A stretch of 64,000 nt of DNA from an uncultured bacterium (GTDB lineage: Bacteria > Desulfobacterota > Deferrimicrobia > Deferrimicrobiales > Deferrimicrobiaceae). Below the pieces are notes generated by a model. It was not told the origin of the DNA and made no database searches. It was given only the letters and a program-made list of their open reading frames with translations. Shown here piece by piece: positions 17,920 to 64,000 of this stretch. A program made the translations under genes and the position numbers. Location: positions 323,767 to 387,766 of the forward strand of contig CAVUIA010000001.1 in NCBI GenBank assembly GCA_963741515.1. The letters run 5' to 3'. How positions within the stretch are numbered: position 1 is the stretch's first letter; each line of letters starts with the position of its first letter.

Positions 17920-19893
17920 ATGAAAACGATCGGCAGAGAGCTCATGTGGAACCTGCAACCCGACGCGGCGGTCATCATGTGGTCGCTGTTCGCCGTGGTC
18001 CTGATCGTCATGGGGTGGGGCTTCCGGTCGCGGGTCGTGGCGTACCGGCGGGGGCGCGCGGAGCGGGAGAACCGGCTCGACAACTGGCAGGCCCGGCTCG
18101 CGGATGTCTTCCGGCTCGCCATCTTCCAGCAGCGGGTCCTCCATGAAAAGCTCGGCGGGCTGATCCACCTCGCCATCTACGCCTCGTTCCTCGTCCTGAT
18201 CGTCGTCACCACGCTGGTGGCCGTCGAGTTCGACCTCGGCATCGTGTTCCTCGACGGGAACTTCTACATCGTCTTCAAGCTGTTCGCCGAGACGTTCGGG
18301 GCGCTCCTGGTCGCCGGGGCGGCGGCGGCCCTGTTCCGCCGGTTTGTCCTCCGGCCGGAAGGGCTCACGAAGGACAACGACGACACGCTGCAGCTCCTCC
18401 TCATCCTGTTCATCGCCGTGACGGGCTTCCTGATCGAGACGGCGCGCATCGCGGCGACGGCTCCGAAGATCGCGCCCGTGTCCTACATCAGCGACTTCCT
18501 GGCCCCGCTCCTCTTCGGCGGGATGGAGCTCCCCCGGCTCCTCGCGATCCACAATGCGTTGTGGTGGGTCCACCTGGCGGCCGCGTTCGGCTTCCTCGCC
18601 GCCATCCCCTTCACGAAGATGATCCACATGGGCACGGGGACGGCGAGCGTCTACCTGCGCTCGTCCCGGCCGAAGGGCGCGCTGCAGCCGGTCCCCAACA
18701 TCGAAGAGGAGGAAAAGCCCGGCGTGGCCGCGCTGGAGGATTTCTCCTGGAAGCAGCTGCTGTCGGCGGACGGCTGCACCAAGTGCGGCCGGTGCCAGGA
18801 CGAATGCCCCGCGCACGCCGCATCGATGCCGCTCTCCCCGAGGGAGGTGGTCCTCAAGACGAAGGGCCAGATGGAGGCCGGCGCCGCGGCCGCCCCCGAT
18901 TTCGTCCACGGGGTCCTCACGCCGGAGGAGATCTGGGCCTGCACCACCTGCCGCGCCTGCATGCAGGCGTGCCCCGTCCTCATCGAGCACATCGACATGA
19001 TCGTCGACGTCCGGCGCGGCTACGTCGCCGCCTCCAAGGTGCCCGACACCGTGAAGCAGGCGCTGCGGAAGATGGGCGACACGGGGAACCCGTGGGGGCT
19101 GCCGCAGGACGACCGGATCGCGTGGACCGCGGGGCTCGACGTCCCCTTCGCGGCGGACAAGCCCGATTTCGAGTACCTGCTGTGGGTGGGCTGCGCCGGG
19201 GCGTACGACCCGCGGAACCAGAAGGTGACCCGGGCGCTGGTGTCGCTCCTCGACCGCGCCGGCGTCAATTACGCCACCCTCGGGCTCGAGGAGATGTGCT
19301 GCGGGGAATCCGCGCGGCGCATGGGCGAGGAAGGGTTGTTCCAGCTGGGAATGGTGGAGATGGCGAAGGAGACGTTCAAGAGCTACAACGTGAAGAAGGT
19401 GATCACGCCGTGCCCCCACTGCTTCAACACCTTCCGGAACGAATACCCCCAGTTCGGCGTGAACGTCGAGGTGGTGCACCACTCCGTCTTCCTCCGCGAC
19501 CTGATCGCCCAGGGGAAGCTCGTTCCGCGGAAAAACGCCGACCTCACCCTCGCGTTCCACGATTCGTGCTACCTCGGGCGGCACAACGACATCTACGACG
19601 CGCCGCGCGAGGCGATCCGGGCCGTCCCCGGCGTCAAGATCCTCGAAATCGAAAAGAGCCGCGAGGAGGCTTTTTGCTGCGGCGCCGGCGGCGGCGGGAT
19701 GTGGATGGACGCCGCGGGGGGGAAACGGATCAACTACCTGCGGTTCGACCAGGCGAGGAAGACCGGGGCGAACGTCTTCGGGATGGCGTGCCCGTACTGC
19801 ATGACCATGTTCGACGACGCGATCAAGTTCAACAATCTCGAGGACGAGATGAAGGTCAAGGACGTGGCGGAGCTGCTGGCGGATTCCATGTAA
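17920..19893 (+). CDS. membrane-bound HdrD/DsrK-like Fe-S oxidoreductase fused to an N-terminal NarI/DsrM-like membrane domain
   Basis: Intact 657-aa ORF. About five N-terminal TM helices with His ligands, then CTKCGRCQDECP and CTTCRACMQACP clusters and CCG motifs (CCGES, CCGAGGGG). Confidence 0.75.
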   Translation: MKTIGRELMWNLQPDAAVIMWSLFAVVLIVMGWGFRSRVVAYRRGRAERENRLDNWQARLADVFRLAIFQQRVLHEKLGGLIHLAIYASFLVLIVVTTLVAVEFDLGIVFLDGNFYIVFKLFAETFGALLVAGAAAALFRRFVLRPEGLTKDNDDTLQLLLILFIAVTGFLIETARIAATAPKIAPVSYISDFLAPLLFGGMELPRLLAIHNALWWVHLAAAFGFLAAIPFTKMIHMGTGTASVYLRSSRPKGALQPVPNIEEEEKPGVAALEDFSWKQLLSADGCTKCGRCQDECPAHAASMPLSPREVVLKTKGQMEAGAAAAPDFVHGVLTPEEIWACTTCRACMQACPVLIEHIDMIVDVRRGYVAASKVPDTVKQALRKMGDTGNPWGLPQDDRIAWTAGLDVPFAADKPDFEYLLWVGCAGAYDPRNQKVTRALVSLLDRAGVNYATLGLEEMCCGESARRMGEEGLFQLGMVEMAKETFKSYNVKKVITPCPHCFNTFRNEYPQFGVNVEVVHHSVFLRDLIAQGKLVPRKNADLTLAFHDSCYLGRHNDIYDAPREAIRAVPGVKILEIEKSREEAFCCGAGGGGMWMDAAGGKRINYLRFDQARKTGANVFGMACPYCMTMFDDAIKFNNLEDEMKVKDVAELLADSM

Positions 19894-19927
19894 ACTTTGC
19901 CGGGACCTGCGGAAGGGCAAATTACAA

Positions 19928-19965
19928 GGGAAGTTGTCGGTCGGCAACTTCCCTTTTATGTTTAT
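19928..19965 (+). terminator. rho-independent terminator (GGGAAGTTG-tcggtcgg-CAACTTCCC, then TTTTATGTTT)
   Basis: 9-bp GC-rich stem and T-tract about 35 nt after the stop of the upstream gene. Confidence 0.6.
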
Positions 19966-19999
19966 CAACTGTCCTTGTTTTTATACAATCGGATTGGCC

Positions 20000-21631
20000 A
20001 TGGGAGAACAACCCGAAAACGTCCTTTCGAACTTGCTTAAAAAACGGCTGAAAACGCTGGGGTATCCTTCCCTGCGGCGGTTCCACGCCGACCGGCCCGG
20101 CATGGGCCTCAGTTACGAGATCCTCCGGCAGGTGGTCTATACCGGGCACGTCCCCCGGCCTGAAACGCTGTTCAGGATCCTCGGTTCCATGCAGTTTTCC
20201 TCCAGCCAGATCCAGAAGATTTGCGGGATGCACTACGGGGACTACCTCCCCATCCCGAATGGCGGGGCGGGCTCGTCCCCCCACTCCGCTTCCGCGTCCA
20301 AGGAAGCTCCGGCGGCCGGGGCGGCCGTCGAGGAAAGCCAGGGCGGCCGGGGCGACCGGCAGCGGCAGGACGCGGACGGGCAGGGGTCCCCGCTCCTCGA
20401 GGACCCGGGGGAAATCCTTTCCCGCCTCCGGTCCGCCCTCCCGCAGATCCCGCTGCCCGGAAACGAGGACTTCTGGGAGCTGCTGCAGTCGATGGCGCGG
20501 ATCGCCGAGCAGAAAGTGCGGCGCGGCGCCTCCCGGCAGGCGGAGCAGCCTCTCCTCTTCGCCGGCGAGCCCGAGGCGATCTACCAGTTCCTGGTGAGGA
20601 AGAGCCGGATCCCCGCGTTCATGTCGCGCGGGGAGGACATCCCCTTGAGCTTCGGCGAGGGGATCGACTACAGGGACCGGTTCCTGGGCTCGATGCTGGG
20701 CGCGGCGGTGGGAGACTCCCTGGGCACCATCACGCAAGGGCTGACGTCGAGGGACATCCAGGAGCTGTACGGGGATGTCAACGACATCCCGGAGATCCAT
20801 TCCCCCCGGGGCGTTCCCGCGACGCCGGAATCCTCCCCCCTGCTCTCGGTCGCCCGCGCCTTCCTCCCCGACGGCGTCCTGGACCCCGCGAAGATCGCGG
20901 TGGCGATGGCGCGGTCGGTCCGCCGCGAGGACCCGGCGGGGCTGCAGGGATTCGCCCGGAACCTGCTGGAGCGCGCCCTCCCCTGGCACGAGGCGGGGGA
21001 GAACCTTCCCGAAAGCGCCCCGGCGGTGCTCGTCCTTCCGCTGGCGCTGCTGCGCGCGGGGAATTTCCGGCGGCTCAAGCTCGAAGCGGGGATCCTCGCG
21101 TCGCTTTCCCACCCCAACCCGGGAGCGATCGCGGGCGCGATCGCCCAGGCCTTCGCCGTGGCGAAGGCGCTGCACTGCCCGCCGGGGTTCCTCGACGTGC
21201 TCTCGTTCCCCAGGACGCTCTCCCCGGTGGTTTCCGGGATCGAGCCGGAGCGCGGGTCCAAGCCGCGCGTCGGCCGGGCCCCCTCCACCGTCGGAAGGAA
21301 GCTCGGGGCCGAACTGCCCGCCCTGCTCCTGCGCAGGGCGCCGGTCGGCGAGATGCAGGAGTCGCTCGGGAACGGCGAGTCGGCCCACGAGGGGATCCCG
21401 TTCGCCCTGGGCTGCTTCCTGCGGTCCCCGGGCGATTTCGCGGAAACCGTCCTGCAGGCGGTGCGTCAGGGCGGCGACGCGAGGGTGATCGGCGCCCTCG
21501 CCGGGGCGTTGTGCGGCGCGTACGTCGGGAGGGAAGGCATCCCCGAACGGTTCCTGTCGCGGCTGGTCTTGAGGGATGAGATCGCCCGGACCGCGGAGGC
21601 GCTTCACGCCCTCGCGGCCCGGGAAGGATAA
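20000..21631 (+). CDS. HTH (XRE-like) domain fused to an ADP-ribosylglycohydrolase-family domain
   Basis: N-terminus LSNLLKKRLKTLGYPSLRRFHADRPGMGLSYEILRQVVYTGHVP (helix-turn-helix). C-terminal part has GAAVGDSLG and other ARH/DraG-like motifs. An AT-rich promoter-like stretch (TTATCA-N16-TACAAT) lies upstream. Confidence 0.65.
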   Translation: MGEQPENVLSNLLKKRLKTLGYPSLRRFHADRPGMGLSYEILRQVVYTGHVPRPETLFRILGSMQFSSSQIQKICGMHYGDYLPIPNGGAGSSPHSASASKEAPAAGAAVEESQGGRGDRQRQDADGQGSPLLEDPGEILSRLRSALPQIPLPGNEDFWELLQSMARIAEQKVRRGASRQAEQPLLFAGEPEAIYQFLVRKSRIPAFMSRGEDIPLSFGEGIDYRDRFLGSMLGAAVGDSLGTITQGLTSRDIQELYGDVNDIPEIHSPRGVPATPESSPLLSVARAFLPDGVLDPAKIAVAMARSVRREDPAGLQGFARNLLERALPWHEAGENLPESAPAVLVLPLALLRAGNFRRLKLEAGILASLSHPNPGAIAGAIAQAFAVAKALHCPPGFLDVLSFPRTLSPVVSGIEPERGSKPRVGRAPSTVGRKLGAELPALLLRRAPVGEMQESLGNGESAHEGIPFALGCFLRSPGDFAETVLQAVRQGGDARVIGALAGALCGAYVGREGIPERFLSRLVLRDEIARTAEALHALAAREG

Positions 21632-21652
21632 GCCGGCTTCGCCTTTACTCCG

Positions 21653-22261
21653 TCAAACCCGCTTGATGCAGAACCCCTCGGACAACATCTGGAAGACCTC
21701 GGCCGAGGTGACGGAGGGGTGGAACTTCTGCCTCTTCGAAAGGATGTAGGTCCGGGAAAGCTCGTCCATCGCCCCGAAAACGACGCGGCGCGCCACGCCC
21801 ACGTTCAGGTCCGGGCGGAAGGTGCCGTCCCGCTTCCCTTCCTCGAGGACGCCGCTCAGGACGTCGAGGTACTCGAAGAACTTCACGGGCGTGTAGTCCT
21901 TCAGGAACTTGCTGCTCTGCCGGAGCTCCACCTGCAGGACCTCGATGAGCCCCGCCTCGCACTCGAGAAGGCCCATGTGGTTCTCGATGAAGATCCTCAT
22001 TTTATCGAGGGCGGTTCCGCCCGCCTCGATCTTCTTCCGCACGTCGACGACGATCTCGACCATCTTCTCCTCGAAGAGGGAGATCAGCAGGTCGTCCTTG
22101 TTCTTGAAATAGAGGTAGATGGTGCCGTCCGCCACGCCGGAGGCCCGGGCGATCTCGGACACCTTCGAGTTGAAGAACCCTTTGCGGGAAAAAACCTCTA
22201 TCGCCGCCTGGAGAATCCGGTTCCTTTTGTCTCCCGCATGGCTCGGATCCCTTTTCGGCAT
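21653..22261 (-). CDS. TetR/AcrR-family transcriptional regulator
   Basis: Intact 202-aa ORF with an N-terminal TetR HTH (RILQAAIEVFSRKGFFNSKVSEIARASGVADGTIYLYFKNKDDLL). Confidence 0.85.
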   Translation of the reverse strand: MPKRDPSHAGDKRNRILQAAIEVFSRKGFFNSKVSEIARASGVADGTIYLYFKNKDDLLISLFEEKMVEIVVDVRKKIEAGGTALDKMRIFIENHMGLLECEAGLIEVLQVELRQSSKFLKDYTPVKFFEYLDVLSGVLEEGKRDGTFRPDLNVGVARRVVFGAMDELSRTYILSKRQKFHPSVTSAEVFQMLSEGFCIKRV

Positions 22262-44982: not shown

Positions 44983-45822
44983 TCATAATTTCAACCCTTT
45001 TTTCGCCAAAGAGAGAAACGTTCCTGGAGGGACGTTTTTCCCCGTCCAGAGCGCGAAGCTTCGTGCGGCCTGGCAGGCCAGCATGGGCAGCCCGTCGATC
45101 GACGGCACCCCCCGTGCGCGGAGACTCCTTACCAGCGAGGTCCCACCGGCCCGATAAACCAGATCGGCAAAACGGGTGGTTTTCTTTACTGCTTTGTGGG
45201 GAAAATCTTCCCATTCCCCGATCAGCCCCAGGGGGGTGCACTGGACGATGAGGTCGGCCCCCCGGAACGCCTCTTCGAGCGTCCCCGGGTCGACGCCCCC
45301 TGTGGAGAACCCGACGCGCGGGAGCCGGGCGGCAAGGGCCCGCGCGACCTCTTCCGCGCGCCGGGGGTTCCGGTTCAGGACGGCGATCCGCCGGGCCCCG
45401 GCTTTTCCCAGGGCGAAGGCGACCCCCCGCGCGGCGCCCCCCGCGCCCAGCAGGACGACATTTCCGTGCCGCCGCCCCCACCCGCGCCCCTCGAGCGCGT
45501 CGAGGAACCCTTCCCCGTCGGTGTTGTCGGCGTGGAGCTTACCGTCCCGGGCCACGAGGGTGTTCGCCGCCCCGCACGCCTCGACCGCTTCCGAACGGGT
45601 GTCGGAAAGCGCCGCCGCCTCCTCCTTGAACGGGATGGTGACGTTCCCCCCGAGGAAATTCGCCTCCCGGACGATCCGCAGGAATCCCTCGAGGCGGCCG
45701 TCCGGCAGCTCTACGGGAACGTAGCACAAGGGAAGCCGCAGGCGGGCGATGACCCCGTTGTGCATCGCCGGGCTCAAGGAGTGCCCCACAGGGCGGCCGA
45801 CGACGAAAAGCAGGGAGATCAT
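44983..45822 (-). CDS. aroE: shikimate dehydrogenase
   Basis: SLSPAMHN motif and NADP Rossmann motif (GAGGAARG). In-frame part of track ORF 44983..45882. Confidence 0.8.
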   Translation of the reverse strand: MISLLFVVGRPVGHSLSPAMHNGVIARLRLPLCYVPVELPDGRLEGFLRIVREANFLGGNVTIPFKEEAAALSDTRSEAVEACGAANTLVARDGKLHADNTDGEGFLDALEGRGWGRRHGNVVLLGAGGAARGVAFALGKAGARRIAVLNRNPRRAEEVARALAARLPRVGFSTGGVDPGTLEEAFRGADLIVQCTPLGLIGEWEDFPHKAVKKTTRFADLVYRAGGTSLVRSLRARGVPSIDGLPMLACQAARSFALWTGKNVPPGTFLSLAKKGLKL

Positions 45823-46433
45823 CAATCCCGCAGCTCGAGGTTCCAATAGGTGAAGTCGACGACGTTGAGGAAAGGCACCCATTCCCTGTGGATCGGCCGG
45901 CGGAGGGAAAAGGCGTACTCGGGGGACCAGCGGGGAAGGCCGGGGACCGAGATCAGCCGCATCCCCGCCCGGTCGGGGGGATTCCCCCCCTTCCGCTTGT
46001 TGCAGGGGACGCAGCTGCAGACGATGTTCTCCCAGGTGGTCTTCCCTCCCTGGGAGCGGGGAACCACGTGGTCGAGATTGAGGTCGCTGGTGGGGAAGGA
46101 GCGGCCGCAGTACTGGCAGGTGCTGCCGTCCCGGATGAAGACGTTGCGGCGGCTGAACCGGATGTTGCGCCGCGGGATGCGGTCGTACGCGACGAGGACC
46201 ACCACGCGGGGCACCCGCATCACCCGCCCCACGAGCCCGACGCAGTCCTCCCCCCCGGCGACCGACAAGGCGCTCCAGGAGGGGTAATCGAACATCTCGT
46301 ACTGCTCGTTGATCGCTTTGGCGAGACCCGCGTAGAGGAGGCAGAAAGCCCGGCGCGCGGTGGTGACGTGGACCGGGAAAAAGGCCCGGTTGAGAACGAG
46401 AACGCTCGAGGTCAGCATCGTAGAAACCGGCAT
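45822..46433 (-). CDS. HNH endonuclease-family protein
   Basis: Intact 203-aa ORF with an HNH motif (CQYCG...DLNLDHVVPRSQGGKTTWENIVCSCVPCN). Confidence 0.75.
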   Translation of the reverse strand: MPVSTMLTSSVLVLNRAFFPVHVTTARRAFCLLYAGLAKAINEQYEMFDYPSWSALSVAGGEDCVGLVGRVMRVPRVVVLVAYDRIPRRNIRFSRRNVFIRDGSTCQYCGRSFPTSDLNLDHVVPRSQGGKTTWENIVCSCVPCNKRKGGNPPDRAGMRLISVPGLPRWSPEYAFSLRRPIHREWVPFLNVVDFTYWNLELRD

Positions 46434-50836: not shown

Positions 50837-53800
50837 GTGATGACGCGGATCCCCCCATCCATACGGAAGCCGTCCCGGTACAGCGGGAGCGAAATCCGCC
50901 CCGCGCTGATTCCCTGGGAAGACGCCAAAACGCGCGTCCTGCTTGCGTTTCCCGACGCGTACGAGATCGGGATGTCCCACCTGGGGATCCTCCTGCTCCA
51001 CGAGATCCTCAACGCGCGGCCCGGGACGCTCTGCGAGCGCGTCTTCGCCCCGTGGACCGACTACGCGGAGCATCTGCGCGCCTCGGGGGAGCCGCTCCCG
51101 TCGCTCGAGTCGGGGCGCCCGGCCGGCTCCTTCGACATGGTCGGGTTCTCCCTCTGCTACGAGCTCACCTACACCAACGTCCTCATGATGCTGGAATTGG
51201 CGGGGATCCCGCTCCTGTCGAAGGACCGGGGCGAGGGGCATCCCCTGGTCGTCGGGGGGGGCGTCTGCACGCTGAACCCCGCCCCCGTCGCCCCCTTCTT
51301 CGACGCCCTCCTCGTGGGGGACGGCGAAGAGGCGGCGCTGGAGATCGTCTCCGCCGTCGAGGAGCGCAAGGCGAAGGGAGGGTCCCGCGCCGACCTGCTG
51401 GCGACGCTCGCCGGGATCGCCGGCGTGTACGTGCCGGGGGTCTCCATGGGCGTCTCCCGCCGGGTGCTGCCCGACCTCGCCCTCTCGCCGCTGCTGCCCG
51501 CGCCCATCCTCCCGTCGATGCGCGTGGTGCACGACCGGCTGAGCATCGAGATCTCCCGCGGCTGCACCCGGGGCTGCCGGTTCTGCCAGGCCGGCTACGC
51601 GTACCGGCCGGTGCGGGAGCGCGACCCGCTCGCGGTGCTGGCCTACCTGCAGGAAAGCGCCCCCAAGACGGGGTACGACGAGGTGGGGCTCCTGTCGCTC
51701 TCGGCCGCCGACTACAGCTGCATCGACCGGCTCGTCACCGAGGCGATGGACGCGCTGGCCCCGGACCACGTCTCCCTTTCGCTCCCGGCGCTGCGGCTGG
51801 ACGCCCTGACGGAGAACACGGTCGAGCAGCTCCGCAAGGTGCGCAAGTCGGGGTTCACGCTGGCGCCCGAGGCGGGGACGGAACGGCTGCGCCGCTCCGT
51901 GAACAAGGACATCCTCGACGACGACGTCCTCAAGACGGCGGAGTGGATCTTCGGGAACGGCTGGCAGACCCTCAAGCTCTATTTCATGGTGGGGCTCCCC
52001 GGCGAGACGAGCGAGGACGTGCGCGCCATCGGCCTGCTGGCGAAGCGGGTCGCCGCGGTCGCCCGGCGCAAGGGGAAGCGCTGCTCCGTCACGGTGAGCG
52101 TCTCCCCGTTCGTCCCGAAGCCGCACACGCCGTTCCAGTGGGAGCGCCAGGCCGGGCGGGACGAGATGCACGAGCGGATCCGGATCGTGCGGGACGCCCT
52201 CGGGCGGGAGCGGAACGCGGAGCTGAAGCACGCCTCGCCGGAGGTTTCCGAGCTGGAGGGCGTCTTCTCGCGCGGCGACGGCCGCCTCCCTTCGGTCATC
52301 CTTTCGGCGTACCGCAACGGGGCGCGGTTCGACGCGTGGACGGAGGAATTCCGCCCCGAGGCGTGGAGCCGGGCCTTCGCGGAGGCCGGCATCGACCCGC
52401 TCGAATACCTGAAGGAACGCGACCCGGCCGCCCCGCTCCCCTGGGACGTCGTCGACGCGGGCATCGACCGCGGCTTCCTGCTCGCCGAGCGGGAGAAGGC
52501 GCGGACCGGCGAGATCACCCCCGACTGCCGCTCCGCGGGATGCACCTCCTGCGGGGCGTGCCCGCCGGGGCTTTCGAACATAACGTACGCGGGCCGGCTG
52601 GCGGCGCCCTCCCCCGCCCCGGAGCCGGCGGCCCCCGCGCCGCCCGCGCCCTCCCCCCAGGCGCCGCCGCGGCGCCACGTCGTGCGGATCGCCTACGCCA
52701 AGGAGGGGCCGGCGAAATACCTGAGCGGCCTGGAGATCCAGTCGCTGTGGGGGCGCACTTTACGGCGCGCCGGGCTGCCGATCGCGTACAGCCAGGGGTT
52801 CAACCCCGCGCCGAAGCTTTCCCTCGGGCCGGCGCTGGCGGTCGGAACCGACAGCGGCTGCGAGTTCCTCGAGGCGGAGTTCACCCTTCCGGTCGTCGCC
52901 TCGGAGCTCCCGTCGATCCTGCCTCCGCACCTCCCCGCGGGCGTCCGCGTGATCGAGGCGAAGACGGTCCCGCCGGGCTCCCCGCGCATGTCCGACTACG
53001 ACCTGGCGTCCGACTACTCCCTGCGCCCGCTCCCCGGCTTCGCGCTCCCGGAAGGGATCACGCCTTCCCTGGCCGCGGAGCGGTTCGCCGCGTTCCGCGC
53101 CGCGCAAGCCTTTCCGCTGGCGCTCGTCCGCGAAGCGCAGGTGACCGAGGTGGACCTCCGCCCGCTGGTCGACGATTTCAAGGTGAATGCGGAGGGCATC
53201 TTCATTAAAATCATACAGGGCACGGGAAAAGGGGTGCGGCCGGCCGAGGCCGCCGCGGCGATCCTCGGCGTTCCGCTTTCGCCCGACCGGCTCGTCGTCA
53301 GGAAGGAATCGGCGGAGCCTGATCCCCCGCCCGGGAAAGACATGATGCAGAGACCCAGCAGGCACATCGTGGTGAACGCCGCGCCGTACGAGACGCGCGT
53401 GGCCACCCTCGAGTCCGGCGCCCTCGCGGAGCTGCTCATCGAACGGGGCGAGGACAAGAACTCCGTCGGCAACATCTACAACGGGAAGGTCATCCGGGTC
53501 CTGCCCGGCATGCAGGCCGCCTTCGTCGACATCGGCATGGACAAGGCGGGGTTCCTCTTCGCGGGCGACTTCGTCACCCCGCAGCTCGAGTTCGACACCG
53601 ACCCGGTCGAGGACCCCGGCCTCCCCGACGACATCGGCATCCGCCCGGCCCGCTACCCGCAGGACCATTTCCTCCCGCCGATCGAGGGGCTGATCCGCGA
53701 AGGGCAGCACCTCCTGGTCCAGGTCGCCAAGGAGCCGCTGGGGACGAAGGGCGCGCGGATCACCAGCCACATCACCCTGCCCGGCCGCCACCTGGTGCTC

Positions 53801-54874
53801 CTCACCTGGTCGAACCACATCGGGATCTCCCGGCGCATCGAGGACCCCGAGGAGCGGGACCGGCTGACGAAGATCGTCGAGTCGATCCGGCCCGAGGGGA
53901 TGGGCGCCATCGTCCGCACCGCCGCGGAGGGCGGCACCGAGGATTCGCTCCGGACCGACATGGACTACCTCGTCCGCCTGTGGGAGACGATCCGCAAGAA
54001 GAGCGAGAACGCCGCGGCCCCCGCCCTGATCCACCGCGAGCTCTCCCTTTCCATGCGCGCGGTGCGCGACCTGTTCTCCAGCGACTCGGACCGGATCGTG
54101 GTCGACTCCCCCGAGGAGCACACCCGGATCCGCGCGTTCGCCCAGCAGTTCTTCCCGCGCATCCTGGACAGGATCGAGCTGTACAACGGCCCCGAGCCCA
54201 TCTTCGACAACTACGGCATCGAGATCGAGGTGAACCGGGCGCTCGACAAGAAGGTGTGGCTCAAGAGCGGCGGGTACATCGTGATCGAGCAGACGGAGGC
54301 GCTCACCGTCGTCGACGTGAACACGGGGAAGTACGTCGGCCGCTCCTCGCTCGAGGACACGACGGTCAAGATCAACCTCGAGGCGGTCAAGGAGATCGTC
54401 TACCAGCTGCGGCTGCGCAACATCGGCGGGATCATCATCATCGACTTCATCGACATGAAGAGCGAGGAGAACCGCGAGAAGGTGTACAACGCCCTCGTCG
54501 ACGCGCTGGTGGCGGACCGCAGCAAGACGACGATCTGCAAGATCTCGGAGCTCGGGCTGGTCGAAATGACCCGGAAGCGCGTCCGGGAGAGCCTGGGGCG
54601 CTCCCTCTCCGAGGGCTGCCCCTACTGCTCGGGCGAAGGCGTCATCAAGTCGAAGAAGACGATCTGCTACGACATCTTCCGCGCCCTCGAGCGCCAGAGC
54701 CTGCTCCTGTCGGGCCGGCAGGTGTCGCTGTACGTCCACCCCGCCCTCGCCGAGGAGCTGTTCGGGGAGGAGCGCCGGTTCCTCGAGATCCTCGAGCAGA
54801 AGTTCGGCATGAAGGTGAACATCTCGGCGTCCGAGAAGTTCCACATCGAGCAGTACCGGATCGAGCCGAGCTGA
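50837..54874 (+). CDS. single 1345-aa ORF fusing a radical SAM domain, a DUF2344-like domain and an RNase E/G-family ribonuclease
   Basis: CTRGCRFCQAGY radical-SAM cluster (residues about 1-600), then HVVRIAYAKEGPAKYLSGLEIQSLWGRTLRRAGLP (DUF2344-like), then an S1 domain and RNase E/G catalytic core from MMQRPSRHIVVNAAPYETRVA. No stop in between. The first ATG is at 50840. Confidence 0.75.
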   Translation: MMTRIPPSIRKPSRYSGSEIRPALIPWEDAKTRVLLAFPDAYEIGMSHLGILLLHEILNARPGTLCERVFAPWTDYAEHLRASGEPLPSLESGRPAGSFDMVGFSLCYELTYTNVLMMLELAGIPLLSKDRGEGHPLVVGGGVCTLNPAPVAPFFDALLVGDGEEAALEIVSAVEERKAKGGSRADLLATLAGIAGVYVPGVSMGVSRRVLPDLALSPLLPAPILPSMRVVHDRLSIEISRGCTRGCRFCQAGYAYRPVRERDPLAVLAYLQESAPKTGYDEVGLLSLSAADYSCIDRLVTEAMDALAPDHVSLSLPALRLDALTENTVEQLRKVRKSGFTLAPEAGTERLRRSVNKDILDDDVLKTAEWIFGNGWQTLKLYFMVGLPGETSEDVRAIGLLAKRVAAVARRKGKRCSVTVSVSPFVPKPHTPFQWERQAGRDEMHERIRIVRDALGRERNAELKHASPEVSELEGVFSRGDGRLPSVILSAYRNGARFDAWTEEFRPEAWSRAFAEAGIDPLEYLKERDPAAPLPWDVVDAGIDRGFLLAEREKARTGEITPDCRSAGCTSCGACPPGLSNITYAGRLAAPSPAPEPAAPAPPAPSPQAPPRRHVVRIAYAKEGPAKYLSGLEIQSLWGRTLRRAGLPIAYSQGFNPAPKLSLGPALAVGTDSGCEFLEAEFTLPVVASELPSILPPHLPAGVRVIEAKTVPPGSPRMSDYDLASDYSLRPLPGFALPEGITPSLAAERFAAFRAAQAFPLALVREAQVTEVDLRPLVDDFKVNAEGIFIKIIQGTGKGVRPAEAAAAILGVPLSPDRLVVRKESAEPDPPPGKDMMQRPSRHIVVNAAPYETRVATLESGALAELLIERGEDKNSVGNIYNGKVIRVLPGMQAAFVDIGMDKAGFLFAGDFVTPQLEFDTDPVEDPGLPDDIGIRPARYPQDHFLPPIEGLIREGQHLLVQVAKEPLGTKGARITSHITLPGRHLVLLTWSNHIGISRRIEDPEERDRLTKIVESIRPEGMGAIVRTAAEGGTEDSLRTDMDYLVRLWETIRKKSENAAAPALIHRELSLSMRAVRDLFSSDSDRIVVDSPEEHTRIRAFAQQFFPRILDRIELYNGPEPIFDNYGIEIEVNRALDKKVWLKSGGYIVIEQTEALTVVDVNTGKYVGRSSLEDTTVKINLEAVKEIVYQLRLRNIGGIIIIDFIDMKSEENREKVYNALVDALVADRSKTTICKISELGLVEMTRKRVRESLGRSLSEGCPYCSGEGVIKSKKTICYDIFRALERQSLLLSGRQVSLYVHPALAEELFGEERRFLEILEQKFGMKVNISASEKFHIEQYRIEPS

Positions 54875-55061: not shown

Positions 55062-56303
55062 CTATTCGACCACGCTAATCCAGAACGCCTCGATGCCCCC
55101 CGCCACGGCGTAACCGCGCGCCTTGACCTGGATATTGTTGTCGATGGCCGCATCGGTCAGTCGCGCGTGGGGGAAAGCCGCGTTGTCGTAGTACGCAAGG
55201 GACCGGTCCGGTATCGGGAAGACCGCGTTGTCCGACGCCAGCCGGAGATCGAACGTGTTGTCGGCCTTCCACCCGCCATCGACAACACCCGTTAATTCGG
55301 CCGGGAAGGTGATGCCCACCTTCTCCGCCACGAGAACGCCGCCCAGGAACGTCCCGATCACGTGCACAAGGGCGGTGTCCCGCAGGGCATCGGGGCCCGA
55401 AATTCCCAACGAAGCCAACGAACCCACGTAACGCCCATCATAGTAGTACCAGAGGGTCCCCGATCCGTAATCGACGCCGACGTTGTCGCTGGCCGTCTTC
55501 ACGACGAATGTCCCGTTCGCACGGTCCACCTGGTCCGCGACGCCGGTGACGATGTAATTCGGGGCGCCGACCACCTCCGCGAAGACCTGCGGCCGCAGCA
55601 GGACGTTGCCGCTGCCGCCGGCCTGGTGGTACTTCAGGCCGACCACATTGATGACCACCGAGTAGAACCGGATCCCTCCCTGCGGGTCCGAAGACGCCGG
55701 GATCACGAGTTTCCCGCCGACGAAGTGAACGTCGAAGTGGTAATGCGCCGTGGGGTGGAACAGCACATCGGGCGCGCCCGCGGCGCGGCCGACCACGTTG
55801 TCGTAATACATCCGGATCTTGGAATACTCGCCCGCCGGCACCGAGGAAAACCTGTTCAGCACATTTCCCGCCATCTCCCCCCCCGTCGGGGGATGAAGCA
55901 GGTCGATCACGACGGGTTCGGCCAGCTCCACCGTGACGAACTCCGACGACCTGCCCTCCTCGGCGTGGGAGTTCATCGTTTCCAGCTCCCCGTTATGGTC
56001 CGGGAATTGGGTATGGTCGGCGGGGATCAGCGCCAGTCTCGTCACCGTCACGAAGACGTTGTCGAAGGCCGGGGAATTCCCGGGCGCCGCTGCGATATCC
56101 GATGACACGCTCGAGGATGCCAACGTCGCCCCCGCGGGGAAAGCCGTGGCGGACGCGATGGAGACGTTGACCGAGGCCGCTCCGGACGTGCCGGAGGAGG
56201 AGGACGTCCCCCCCCCTCCCCCGCAGGCCGCAAGGCCGGCGGTGATCATAAGGACAAGCAGCAGGCGGATCGCGGTGCGCGATGTTTCAGACAGAGACTT
56301 CAT
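55062..56303 (-). CDS. hypothetical lipoprotein (413 aa)
   Basis: MKSLSETSRTAIRLLLVLMITAGLAAC lipobox, then a Gly/Ser-rich linker. ATG follows a GAGGAGGGG Shine-Dalgarno. Confidence 0.65.
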   Translation of the reverse strand: MKSLSETSRTAIRLLLVLMITAGLAACGGGGGTSSSSGTSGAASVNVSIASATAFPAGATLASSSVSSDIAAAPGNSPAFDNVFVTVTRLALIPADHTQFPDHNGELETMNSHAEEGRSSEFVTVELAEPVVIDLLHPPTGGEMAGNVLNRFSSVPAGEYSKIRMYYDNVVGRAAGAPDVLFHPTAHYHFDVHFVGGKLVIPASSDPQGGIRFYSVVINVVGLKYHQAGGSGNVLLRPQVFAEVVGAPNYIVTGVADQVDRANGTFVVKTASDNVGVDYGSGTLWYYYDGRYVGSLASLGISGPDALRDTALVHVIGTFLGGVLVAEKVGITFPAELTGVVDGGWKADNTFDLRLASDNAVFPIPDRSLAYYDNAAFPHARLTDAAIDNNIQVKARGYAVAGGIEAFWISVVE

Positions 56304-56349
56304 GTTCCCCTCCTCTATGGTTCCATTTAATGTCGGTTCGCCGATTTTC

Positions 56350-57345
56350 CTACCTGAAAACAATCCTCGATGCGGAAAGAACGCCGCCGTTTTCCCTCCC
56401 CTGAACCTGGACTTTCCTGTCGGGCTCCCCGGCATCGGCCGAACCGCCGCCGATGAACGCCGTATCGGCGCTCCATACCACCCTCTTCCCCTCCACTTTG
56501 AAGGAGAGATCGTTTCCGGAACCGCCCCATGGCGTCGTGACCAGGCCGGTGAGGGCGGCCTCGGCCCCCTCCGGAAAATCGGTCCGCGCGGCATGCGTCT
56601 CCACACGGGTGGCGGTGATGATGTTGGCGACAGGCGCCCGGTCGGTCGTTACGACCTGAACGTATGAGCCGTTCGCGGGCCCGCCCGCGGGGAAGGAAAC
56701 CGTCACGGTTGTCCCGGAGCCGTCCGGCAGCGGCCCGACGCGAAAACCGGCCGCGGACGATGCGGAGACGAACCCATGGACTTCGAACTCCTGGAAAGGC
56801 GGCGGCATCGGGGGACCCGCGACGGAAACGTACGCCGCACGGATCCGCCCGGCGTTATCCGCATACCCGCTGACCTCCACGACGTCGTCCAGGCCGAGGG
56901 AGAGAAAGAGCGCGGCATTATCCACGACGACGGCCTGTCCCAGGATTCCGATGACGTTGTCGGCGCCGGGGACGATCGCGCTAATGGGCCCCCGCAGGCT
57001 GTTCCGGTATTCGATCGCCCGGGCGTTGTTGTCGCCTGTCCCGTATCGAACCGTCACGACCATCCCCTCGGAGAAAACATCCCTGTCCTTCTGGTGAGAC
57101 TTGTCCGCCCCGTTGACCCACTTTCTCGTCATGTATCCGGGAGCCACGTTGTTGTCCGTGCGGAAATGCACATCGTTGACAACGACGCTGCCGAAGCCGG
57201 AGATCTCGCCCGTGCTGATCCCCGTGCCGCCCGTTCCGCCGCCGGCGAAATCGGTGCCGCTCGTCCCGCAAGAGAGGGAGAGAAGAACCAGCAAGAGCAT
57301 CGGTGCCCCGATACGGAATACGGGCGTTCGATTCGCCGGTTTCAT
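56350..57345 (-). CDS. hypothetical lipoprotein (331 aa)
   Basis: MKPANRTPVFRIGAPMLLLVLLSLSCG lipobox. Its start overlaps the stop of the upstream gene. Confidence 0.65.
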   Translation of the reverse strand: MKPANRTPVFRIGAPMLLLVLLSLSCGTSGTDFAGGGTGGTGISTGEISGFGSVVVNDVHFRTDNNVAPGYMTRKWVNGADKSHQKDRDVFSEGMVVTVRYGTGDNNARAIEYRNSLRGPISAIVPGADNVIGILGQAVVVDNAALFLSLGLDDVVEVSGYADNAGRIRAAYVSVAGPPMPPPFQEFEVHGFVSASSAAGFRVGPLPDGSGTTVTVSFPAGGPANGSYVQVVTTDRAPVANIITATRVETHAARTDFPEGAEAALTGLVTTPWGGSGNDLSFKVEGKRVVWSADTAFIGGGSADAGEPDRKVQVQGRENGGVLSASRIVFR

Positions 57346-62340: not shown

Positions 62341-64000
62341 TCAATCCATCATGCGGACGGGCAGCACGATCATCGGGTGACCGGAGAAGACCAGCCGCTT
62401 CTGCGCCAGGAACGCCGTCTGGTTGTGCAGCAGCCGCGTGACGAAGTTGTCCTCCTCGAACACCAGCTTTCCCGCGAAGAACGCGCAGTTCGGGAAGTCG
62501 GCCGCCACCTGCCCCGCGAGATGGTTGATGATCTCGAGGACGTCCGTCCCCACCTGGTGACGGGCCTCCGCGTAGTAGCCGTGGCCCTTCGCGAACTCCA
62601 CGTAGTTCTCCAGCTGCTTCCCCAGGTCTTCCTTGAGGTTCTCGATCTCCGCCACCCCCTTGAACCGGCTGGTGTCCACGACCCCCGCGGAGATGAAGAC
62701 GAAGTTCCGGAACGTCCCGGGGAAGGAGCGGACGATCGTGAAGAACACGTGCATCCCCAGGCCGTTGTACCCCGACACCATGATGACCGCCGTCGGCGCC
62801 TGGCGCCGCACCAGCGGCTCCTGCGCGGTGGCCGTCGTCGGCGGAGGGAGGTGCAGCAGGAGCTCGTCGAGGCGCCGCAGCTGCTGGGCCGCGTACCGGT
62901 AGTGGCGGCGGATGTAGAAGCTCGCCGCCACGAAGGAGCCCGTGATCAGAAGCGTGATCCAGCCGCCCTCCGGGAACTTCATGATCACCGTCACGCACAG
63001 GATCGACGCGGTGAGGAAGAACCCGATGCCGTTGACCGCCAGGCCGTGCTTCCACTTCGTCTCGGTCCCGCGGTCCTTCCACCAGTGGACCACCATGCCG
63101 AACTGCGACAGGCTGAAGGTCAGAAACACGTTGATCGAGTACATGATCACGAGGTACCGGACCGAGCCCCCCGTGATGAACAGCATCAGGAACGCCATCC
63201 CCCCCATGAAGTAGACGCCGTACTTGGTCACCAGGCGCTCGGACAGGTGGGCGAACCGGTGCGGCATGTACGAGTCGTTCGCCATGTTCGACAGGACCTG
63301 CGGCCCTCCCAGGAAACCCGTCTGCGCCGCCACGAACAGCAGGACCGCCTCGGTGAAGAGAACGAAGGCGGTCATGTATCGCGCGCCTTCCCCGTGCCAT
63401 AAATCGCCCACCAGCCCGCCGAACAGGACCGCGTTCAGCGTCTTCCCCGGGACGGGAACGACGCCGTTCAGGACGTACCCCACGATGATCCCGCCCGCCA
63501 TGAAGGCCAGGGAGAAGGACAGGTACAGCATCGCCCGCTTGCCCGTCTGCACGCGCGGCTCCCGAAGCGTCTGCATCGAGTTCGAGACCGCCTCGATCCC
63601 CGTGTACGTCCCCGCGCCCATCGAATAGGCCCGCAGAAGCAGCGCCCCCACCCCCAGCCACCCGATCTCCGCCGACGCGGCGTTCAGGTCCGTGGAAACG
63701 CGCGCGCCGACCTCCGGAAGTTCCGGCAGGTGGCGGAAGATCGCGTACAGGATCAGCGGAATGTGGGTCAGCAGGAAGGCGACGAAGATCGGCGTCAGCG
63801 TCACCACCGATTCCTTGACCCCCCGCAGGTTGAGCCAGATGAGGATCGCCAGGATGACGCCGATGAACTGGAACTTGTGCGCCATCCAGTCGGCGGGAAG
63901 GAAGCTGAAGATGGCGTCCGCCCCGGCGGCGATCGACACCGTGATCGTCAGGACGTAGTCGATGACCAGCGCCGACCCCGACACCACGCCCGCCTTCTCG
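62341..64000 (-). CDS. kup: KUP/HAK/KT potassium uptake transporter (partial, N-terminus beyond the window end)
   Basis: Multi-TM transporter body and a cytoplasmic C-terminal domain typical of Kup. The ORF runs off the window. Confidence 0.85.
   Translation of the reverse strand, partial: EKAGVVSGSALVIDYVLTITVSIAAGADAIFSFLPADWMAHKFQFIGVILAILIWLNLRGVKESVVTLTPIFVAFLLTHIPLILYAIFRHLPELPEVGARVSTDLNAASAEIGWLGVGALLLRAYSMGAGTYTGIEAVSNSMQTLREPRVQTGKRAMLYLSFSLAFMAGGIIVGYVLNGVVPVPGKTLNAVLFGGLVGDLWHGEGARYMTAFVLFTEAVLLFVAAQTGFLGGPQVLSNMANDSYMPHRFAHLSERLVTKYGVYFMGGMAFLMLFITGGSVRYLVIMYSINVFLTFSLSQFGMVVHWWKDRGTETKWKHGLAVNGIGFFLTASILCVTVIMKFPEGGWITLLITGSFVAASFYIRRHYRYAAQQLRRLDELLLHLPPPTTATAQEPLVRRQAPTAVIMVSGYNGLGMHVFFTIVRSFPGTFRNFVFISAGVVDTSRFKGVAEIENLKEDLGKQLENYVEFAKGHGYYAEARHQVGTDVLEIINHLAGQVAADFPNCAFFAGKLVFEEDNFVTRLLHNQTAFLAQKRLVFSGHPMIVLPVRMMD

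Follow-up and report, generated by a model that had tools for sequence, protein, structure and literature searches.

Proteins with the ARH fold are usually treated as erasers of ADP-ribosylation. All characterized ARH enzymes are activated by, and need, a binuclear metal center, and a glutamate residue (Glu41 in ARH3, Glu28 in DraG) is crucial (PMC7050489). The vertebrate paralogue ARH2 (ADPRHL1) is suspected of being catalytically inactive (PMC7050489). In ARG-centered counter-ADP-ribosylation systems, a separate, active ARG stands beside phosphatases, chaperones and separately encoded Nudix or WYL transcription factors (PMC9503650). We analyzed a stretch of 64,000 nucleotides from contig CAVUIA010000001.1 of an uncultured bacterium of the family Deferrimicrobiaceae (the whole stretch is referred to as the window), which carries a gene whose product joins an N-terminal helix-turn-helix (HTH) domain to an ARH-fold domain that is most likely no longer a hydrolase. 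The HTH-ARH protein is like ARH2 in that an ARH fold is kept under selection without the expected activity (PMC7050489). However, ARH2, a eukaryotic protein that lacks a DNA-binding domain, is no close relative and serves as a precedent for a non-catalytic ARH only. The association of an ARH/ARG domain with a transcription factor is shared with the ARG-centered systems (PMC9503650), but in the window family the two are fused, the ARG is most likely inactive, and those partner genes are absent from the loci.

An earlier note on this DNA had described an HTH and an ARH/DraG-like domain in one polypeptide, encoded behind a strong terminator and under a promoter of its own, with a convergent TetR gene downstream and without an adjacent ADP-ribosyltransferase; all of this is borne out by the results given below. 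The list of open reading frames (ORFs) placed the gene at 19934–21631 on the forward strand, with a TTG start and 565 residues. Because this TTG falls within the upstream terminator hairpin, homologues all begin at a position equivalent to the ATG at window position 20000, and public gene calls give 543 residues, the gene is taken as 20000–21631 (+). The 543-residue protein, for which an AlphaFold model was built on 35 homologues (mean predicted local distance difference test score, pLDDT, of 76), has four parts, all encoded on the forward strand: the HTH domain (residues 1–84; 20000–20251); a disordered linker rich in Pro, Ala, Ser and Gly, unconserved in sequence and with a pLDDT of about 26 (residues 85–135; 20252–20404); an orphan helical module (residues 136–222; 20405–20665); and the ARH fold (residues 223–543 and the stop codon; 20666–21631). 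The helical module has no match in Pfam or the PDB, and it contains 31 invariant residues and the conserved sequence GNEDFWE ... EQPLLFxGEPEAIYQFLVR.

The C-terminal part has the features of the ARH superfamily. PF03747 (ADP_ribosyl_GH), the sole domain found by Pfam, matches residues 230–517 over all 287 profile positions (E = 6.2e-37; 128.2 bits against a cut-off of 26.2), and the motif GAAVGDSLG occupies residues 234–242. In the AlphaFold model residues 223–543 form the expected all-alpha core, with a pLDDT of about 90 over most of their length, and a Foldseek search of the PDB gave target-normalized template modeling (TM) scores of 0.74–0.80 to MJ1187 (1t5j), ARH3 and DraG (E 2e-10 to 1e-7). 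With the ARH enzymes (DraG, ARH1, ARH3, MJ1187 and the T. thermophilus TTHA-type protein) the window protein shares this all-helical fold and the motif framework GxxxGDxLG, [ST]H, LGNG and GGDxxxxxxxxGxxxGAxxG, MJ1187 being the best sequence match (1e-23). Unlike them, it adds the N-terminal HTH, the linker, the helical module and a conserved, family-specific insert at about residues 395–450 of the ARH-like domain, and its metal ligands, Glu-flap residue, DraG Asp97 and GNGxxMR motif are replaced family-wide.

To map residues, the protein was aligned pairwise with HMMER to MJ1187, to two DraG entries from R. rubrum and to the T. thermophilus ARH. These alignments covered all motifs and were concordant at every position; the alignment to ARH3 was reliable for the C-terminal GGDxDT motif alone, and agreed there. 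The residues are numbered as in DraG, after subtraction of the five extra N-terminal residues of the deposited chain. The catalytic glutamate of the Glu flap, Glu28, corresponds to Gln246 (codon 20735–20737), and Thr59, Asp60 and Asp61 to Thr275-Pro276-Glu277, which lie in a Thr-Pro-Glu-Ser stretch (residues 275–278; 20822–20833). Asp97 is replaced by Gly314, Asp245 by Arg495 and Thr246 by Val496, and Asp243 is retained as Asp493 (Asp-Ala-Arg-Val from residue 493; 21476–21487, all codons on the forward strand), the sole retained residue of the eight mapped. Neither the Glu-flap glutamate nor the set of binuclear metal ligands of active ARHs (Thr59, Asp60, Asp61, Asp243, Asp245 and Thr246) is therefore in place, and the GNGxxMR motif of active ARHs is missing too. 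The earlier note had named absence of the metal-binding residues as grounds against its own proposal, and this is what we found, with the Asp243 equivalent alone surviving. The scores against functionally specific models are likewise far below their cut-offs: 54.3 bits against 337 for the DraG equivalog TIGR02662, and 37.3 against 490 for the Tri1 model NF041672.

The same pattern holds across 109 full-length homologues, in which seven of the eight mapped DraG residues (metal ligands, catalytic Glu and Asp97) are not conserved. Gln occupies position 246 in 102 of them, with His in five and Glu in one. In the former TDDT loop no residue is conserved, and the pLDDT is below 50; Arg, Gly or Glu stands at position 495, and Ala or Val at 496. 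Asp493 persists in 107 of the 109, and the [ST]-His371 motif, LGNG457-459 and the Arg-rich family-specific insert are also conserved. Since the most divergent representatives, P0131 and P0135, which were found via the N-terminal profile, show the same residue pattern, the comparison indicates that loss of the catalytic site is ancestral to the family. One 550-residue representative, P0121, has a normal N-terminus followed by normal stretches broken by segments that look out of frame; it is probably a frameshifted assembly and is unfit for alignments.

We examined selection in 12 species pairs as the ratio of non-synonymous to synonymous substitution rates (dN/dS). Over its 321 codons, the ARH-like part gave values of 0.12–0.38, which denotes purifying selection; the HTH gave 0.04–0.18, the helical module 0.04–0.45, and the linker mostly 0.33–0.83, with one pair at 0.22. 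More than 60 positions of the ARH domain are invariant across sequences down to 50% identity, and the full length is kept in about 50 species. Among the invariant residues are R358, K360, E362, H392, R405, E415, R418, R433, R445-446, E464 and R475. Because the catalytic residues are lost and the domain is under purifying selection, the ARH domain is most likely a maintained pseudo-enzyme, and not a hydrolase that removes ADP-ribose.

Conservation within the protein is highest in the HTH, where 24 positions are invariant. Residues 1–84 form five helices in the AlphaFold model (pLDDT about 85), a predicted arrangement that corresponds to the five-helix fold of lambda-repressor-like domains. Pfam gave no HTH match at E ≤ 1 on the whole protein and NCBIfam no significant HTH model, so that the window protein lies below the cut-offs of the XRE/Cro-C1 families HTH_3 and HTH_31. 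Among 25 homologue N-termini searched against the same two collections none was significant, and three reached these families at 0.078–0.15 (HTH_31 at best 0.078, HTH_3 0.15). A profile of the N-terminus gave only noise against PDB sequences (E > 0.6). Since no HTH model was significant in these sequence searches, the HTH assignment rests on the fold search. The N-terminal profile matched 28 of 1.84 billion representative proteins, and the first 20 are members or fragments of the same family. The other eight matches are marginal (E 2e-8 to 3e-4), and the only recognizable HTH_3 or repressor-type architectures among them are HTH_3 proteins and an HTH-plus-S24-peptidase repressor (E 6e-5 to 3e-4). 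As the profile finds so few proteins outside the family, residues 1–84 are a very divergent, family-private XRE-type HTH. Its similarity to XRE one-component regulators with C-terminal sensor domains (ComR, PlcR/Rgg, BldD, ClgR, HipB) is below Pfam thresholds. The recognition helix contains the invariant residues S38, Y39, E40 and R43 and the nearly invariant Q44; the ACAA/TTGT half-sites of the palindromes described below are constant too.

The gene is separated from its upstream neighbor by a Rho-independent terminator of that neighbor at 19926–19961 (+; hairpin 19926–19955), with a 13-bp stem, a 4-nt loop and a T-run, and a folding energy of −20.2 kcal/mol. The terminator is kept in lineages of 63–86% identity, with compensatory changes in the arms (GGGGAG/CTCCCC in L004 and L020, GGTAAG/CTTACC in L007, GGGATG/CATCCC in L008, and others in L017 and L046); on these comparisons the hairpin and T-run are a real terminator. 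A promoter scan identified a sigma-70-type promoter, TTATCA-16-TACAAT, at 19962–19989 (+; 9/12 matches). The TACAAT box is conserved in all lineages: it lies at −62 to −57 from the ATG in all lineages outside the clade of the window, and in AT-rich relatives it is preceded 16–17 nt upstream by a consensus TTGACA. In the window clade (the window, L003 and L004) the spacer is 45 nt shorter and the leader with the Shine-Dalgarno sequence, present in all other lineages, has been lost. Here TACAAT ends 10 nt before the ATG in the window and the transcript is predicted to start 3–4 nt before it, which suggests that the mRNA of this clade is leaderless or near-leaderless. A riboswitch or leader RNA is unsupported: Rfam found nothing meaningful in 19700–20200 (RgsA at 13.5 bits against 88), and the window clade has no leader.

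Upstream of the HTH-ARH start codon lies a palindrome, TACAA-N6-TTGTA, at positions fixed at −61/−62 and −122/−123 from the ATG. Both sites are common to the groups of 63–72% and about 50% identity, GC-rich and AT-rich alike, the rest of the spacer having diverged beyond alignment. The copy at −61/−62, which overlaps both the −10 box and the site where transcription is expected to start, is in many relatives a perfect TACAAT-N4-ATTGTA. In the window clade the sites are at −77, −36 and −16. Site 1, TACAAGGGAAGTTGTC (TACAA-N6-TTGT; 19923–19938), overlaps the left terminator arm and is equivalent to the −122/−123 site of other lineages; it is the sole exact ACAA-N6-TTGT in the 64 kb, where 0.04 were expected. 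Site 2, ATCAACTGTCCTTGTT (CAA-N6-TTG; 19964–19979), lies at −36 in the promoter spacer and repeats site 1 in inverted orientation (inverted repeat I2; 13 nt, 85% complementary); in the 63–72% identity group it is kept as CAAC-N5-TTGTT at −81. Site 3, TACAATCGGATTGG (19984–19997), is a degenerate palindrome homologous to the −61/−62 site; it overlaps the −10 box and the predicted transcription start and, owing to the missing 45-nt leader, ends 3 nt before the ATG in the window clade. An attenuator formed by these three repeated 13-mers was considered and rejected, as site 2, which lies downstream of the terminator, shows no covariation with the arms of the hairpin.

We scanned 849 kb for the palindrome, made up of 52 loci and the window at about 20 kb per genome. 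All matches with at most one mismatch and all strong matrix matches were immediately upstream of the HTH-ARH gene. This includes L048, although the upstream neighbor there is a different, divergently oriented gene. The TetR or IclR regulator encoded nearby is unlikely to own the palindromes, no copy being found upstream of either gene. To our knowledge, the palindrome is unlike the LexA, NrdR, Rex, Zur and Fur boxes.

On this evidence we propose that the HTH-ARH protein is an autoregulated one-component transcription regulator, in which the dead ARH domain serves as a sensor or oligomerization module; we judge the chances of this proposal to be evenly balanced. The N-terminal XRE-type HTH, probably dimeric, would bind the TACAA-N6-TTGTA palindromes in its own promoter region, recognizing half-sites about 11 bp apart. 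Sequence-specific DNA binding by the HTH is putative and is suggested by the gene-specific palindromes at fixed upstream positions. Occupancy of the copy on the −10 box and transcription start would repress the gene, giving negative autoregulation. With the binuclear metal center and the catalytic glutamate lost in the family ancestor, the ARH fold and the preceding helical module would be non-hydrolytic, and the ARH-fold domain, kept by selection, would modulate DNA binding by sensing a ligand, by oligomerization, or both. The same regulatory logic is found in the Nudix-related regulator NrtR, described further below, and in XRE-family regulators that carry a sensor domain at the C-terminus (ComR and PlcR, for example), to which the HTH-ARH protein can be compared by analogy.

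Several points weigh against this proposal. Because the −10 hexamer TACAAT falls on the −61 site, the conservation of this site is partly that of the promoter, and in GC-rich lineages site 1 is the left terminator arm as well. The palindrome scan reached about 10 kb to either side of the gene in each genome, and because the loci are homologous the evidence for an operator is one of conservation and not of independent recurrence. A sensor role for the ARH domain is argued by analogy. Binding of ADP-ribose is doubtful, and is only a guess as to the effector, the domain having lost both the GNGxxMR motif and the metals that coordinate the ribose. The ARH-like domain may, finally, hold a non-canonical catalytic site.

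The family is confined to genomes of the Candidatus Deferrimicrobiaceae type. A word-indexed search returned 235 relatives, of which the best 120 are all proteins of about 540 residues with the same architecture or fragments of such proteins; in their source records they are called 'ADP-ribosylglycohydrolase' or 'poly(ADP-ribose) glycohydrolase ARH3', or carry no label. When 185,579 species were scanned, each represented by one genome, 50 loci were found, all in metagenome-assembled genomes (MAGs). Most of these are labeled Deferrimicrobiaceae, Deferrimicrobium or 'Deltaproteobacteria bacterium'; NCBI assigns the family Deferrimicrobiaceae to the candidate phylum Deferrimicrobiota. A few MAGs labeled Actinomycetota, Limnocylindria or Gemmatimonadota (L015, L024, L026 and L041) have the same Deferrimicrobiaceae-type synteny, which suggests mis-binned contigs or mislabeled MAGs and not a wide distribution of the gene.

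The gene order is nearly invariant: an alpha/beta hydrolase gene (−), a NarI-like/4Fe-4S/CCG oxidoreductase gene (+), the HTH-ARH gene (+), genes for an acyl-CoA dehydrogenase (−), a TetR (−) and an IclR (−) regulator, and then TPR, folK, FAH, dapB, dapA and dapF. The oxidoreductase, encoded at 17920–19893 (+) in the window, is a membrane Fe-S protein of HdrD/DsrK-like type with a NarI-like N-terminus, a 4Fe-4S dicluster and two CCG domains (Pfam CCG, 4.6e-34; Fer4_9; Nitrate_red_gam). It is directly upstream of the HTH-ARH gene in essentially every locus with a recovered upstream flank, L048 being the exception; it is a syntenic neighbor, linked to the HTH-ARH gene by position. In four loci it matches as two pieces (L002, 5826–7845; L030, 3063–5080; L047, 5524–7543; L042, 7828–9845), with two called genes in L002; these could be assembly frameshifts or a genuine split. 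The convergent TetR gene (YsiA/FadR-like; TetR_N 1.8e-15, TetR_C_4 4e-23) is at 21653–22261 (−) in the window, where 21 bp separate its stop codon from that of the HTH-ARH gene (21631–21653). The acyl-CoA dehydrogenase gene lies between the two in most other loci (about 40; for example 9655–10797 in L001) and is absent from the window, L003, L004 and L007.

The rest of the window is housekeeping in character, with EF-Tu, coaX, argG, argH, argD, lysA, pilBTC, aroE, an xerC-like gene and others. A single 1345-residue ORF at 50837–54874 (+) apparently joins a radical SAM enzyme (Radical_SAM_N2, Radical_SAM and DUF2344; residues 50–801) to an RNase E/G catalytic domain and its thioredoxin-like domain (residues 980–1343). 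A 203-residue HNH endonuclease gene (45822–46433, −) lies between aroE and a GntR/FCD regulator in an otherwise housekeeping stretch. Two ORFs of 514 and 548 residues (55062–56606 and 62341–63987, both −) have coding-type GC contents at third codon positions (0.80 and 0.95) and no Pfam match at E ≤ 1e-5.

An alternative explanation is that of an active, DNA-binding ADP-ribosylhydrolase with a non-canonical active site, which would erase ADP-ribosylation of protein or DNA as an antitoxin or defense enzyme. It draws on the clear ARH fold, on the retained Asp493, [ST]-His371 and LGNG457-459, on many family-specific invariant Arg, Glu and His residues, and on the purifying selection acting on the domain. 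We nevertheless consider it quite improbable. The family has lost seven of eight residues of a site whose binuclear center all characterized ARHs need (PMC7050489), and its DraG and Tri1 scores are a small part of what those models ask for. A scan of about 35 window genes revealed no ADP-ribosyltransferase domain, and the syntenic loci contain no transferase gene; PADLOC matched none of its families to the HTH-ARH protein; and the loci keep a fixed housekeeping position on the chromosome in about 50 genomes, unlike mobile toxin-antitoxin or defense loci. Membership in a system such as DarTG, ParST, Tre1-Tri1 or DraTG was rejected on the same grounds. Of the functions that the earlier note had offered, those of an antitoxin half of an ADP-ribosyltransferase toxin system and of a defense protein reversing protein or DNA ADP-ribosylation thus fail, and of its 'autoregulated eraser' the autoregulation finds support in the gene-specific palindromes at the gene's own promoter, but the eraser does not outlast the loss of the metal site and catalytic Glu. 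An opposite explanation, that the ARH-like part is a decaying, functionless remnant and the HTH alone matters, would fit the lost catalytic residues and the variable, low-confidence TDDT loop; the low dN/dS over 321 codons in all 12 pairs, the invariant positions and the retention of full length make it very improbable.

Two further explanations, which we regard as unlikely and about equally so, accept the pseudo-enzyme. The HTH may be a RodZ-like protein-interaction module within a pseudo-enzyme scaffold that does not bind DNA, acting for example with the Fe-S oxidoreductase or the acyl-CoA dehydrogenase, and the palindromes would then belong to another regulator or to the promoter. Alternatively, the dead ARH domain may be a reader that binds ADP-ribose or a metabolite derived from nicotinamide adenine dinucleotide (NAD), such as O-acetyl-ADP-ribose or ADP-ribose-1''-phosphate (ADPr-1''-phosphate), without cleaving it, and signals to the XRE HTH. 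The reader role is weakened by the loss of ribose-coordinating metals noted above, and it has a parallel in NrtR, a Nudix-related regulator that, reportedly from the work of Rodionov et al. in 2008 and Huang et al. in 2009, consists of a degenerate Nudix domain and a C-terminal winged helix, responds to ADP-ribose and has a known NAD regulon. By analogy, both would be repressors in which a catalytically dead enzyme fold from ADP-ribose metabolism, joined to a DNA-binding domain, acts as the effector-sensing module. The components differ, being Nudix and winged helix in one and ARH and XRE HTH in the other, and their order is opposite; with no Pfam match to a Nudix or winged-helix domain in the window protein, the resemblance is one of functional logic only.

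The literature searched does not describe the ARH fold as a C-terminal partner of an XRE-family HTH, and full-text searches turned up neither an HTH-ARH fusion nor a bacterial ARH pseudo-enzyme. The public labels 'ADP-ribosylglycohydrolase' and 'poly(ADP-ribose) glycohydrolase ARH3' are almost certainly wrong for this family, which is present across a candidate phylum. It provides a clean bacterial example of an ARH pseudo-enzyme that selection has maintained in fusion with a DNA-binding domain. The definition of a putative operator makes the idea of an autoregulated regulator directly testable. Should the dead domain have no NAD-derived ligand, the family would be a caution against annotating defense or toxin-antitoxin systems by domain names alone. 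If it does bind one, it would represent a new sensor fold for ADP-ribose signaling, the first ARH-fold sensor domain of a transcription factor and an independent structural counterpart of NrtR in the candidate phylum Deferrimicrobiota.

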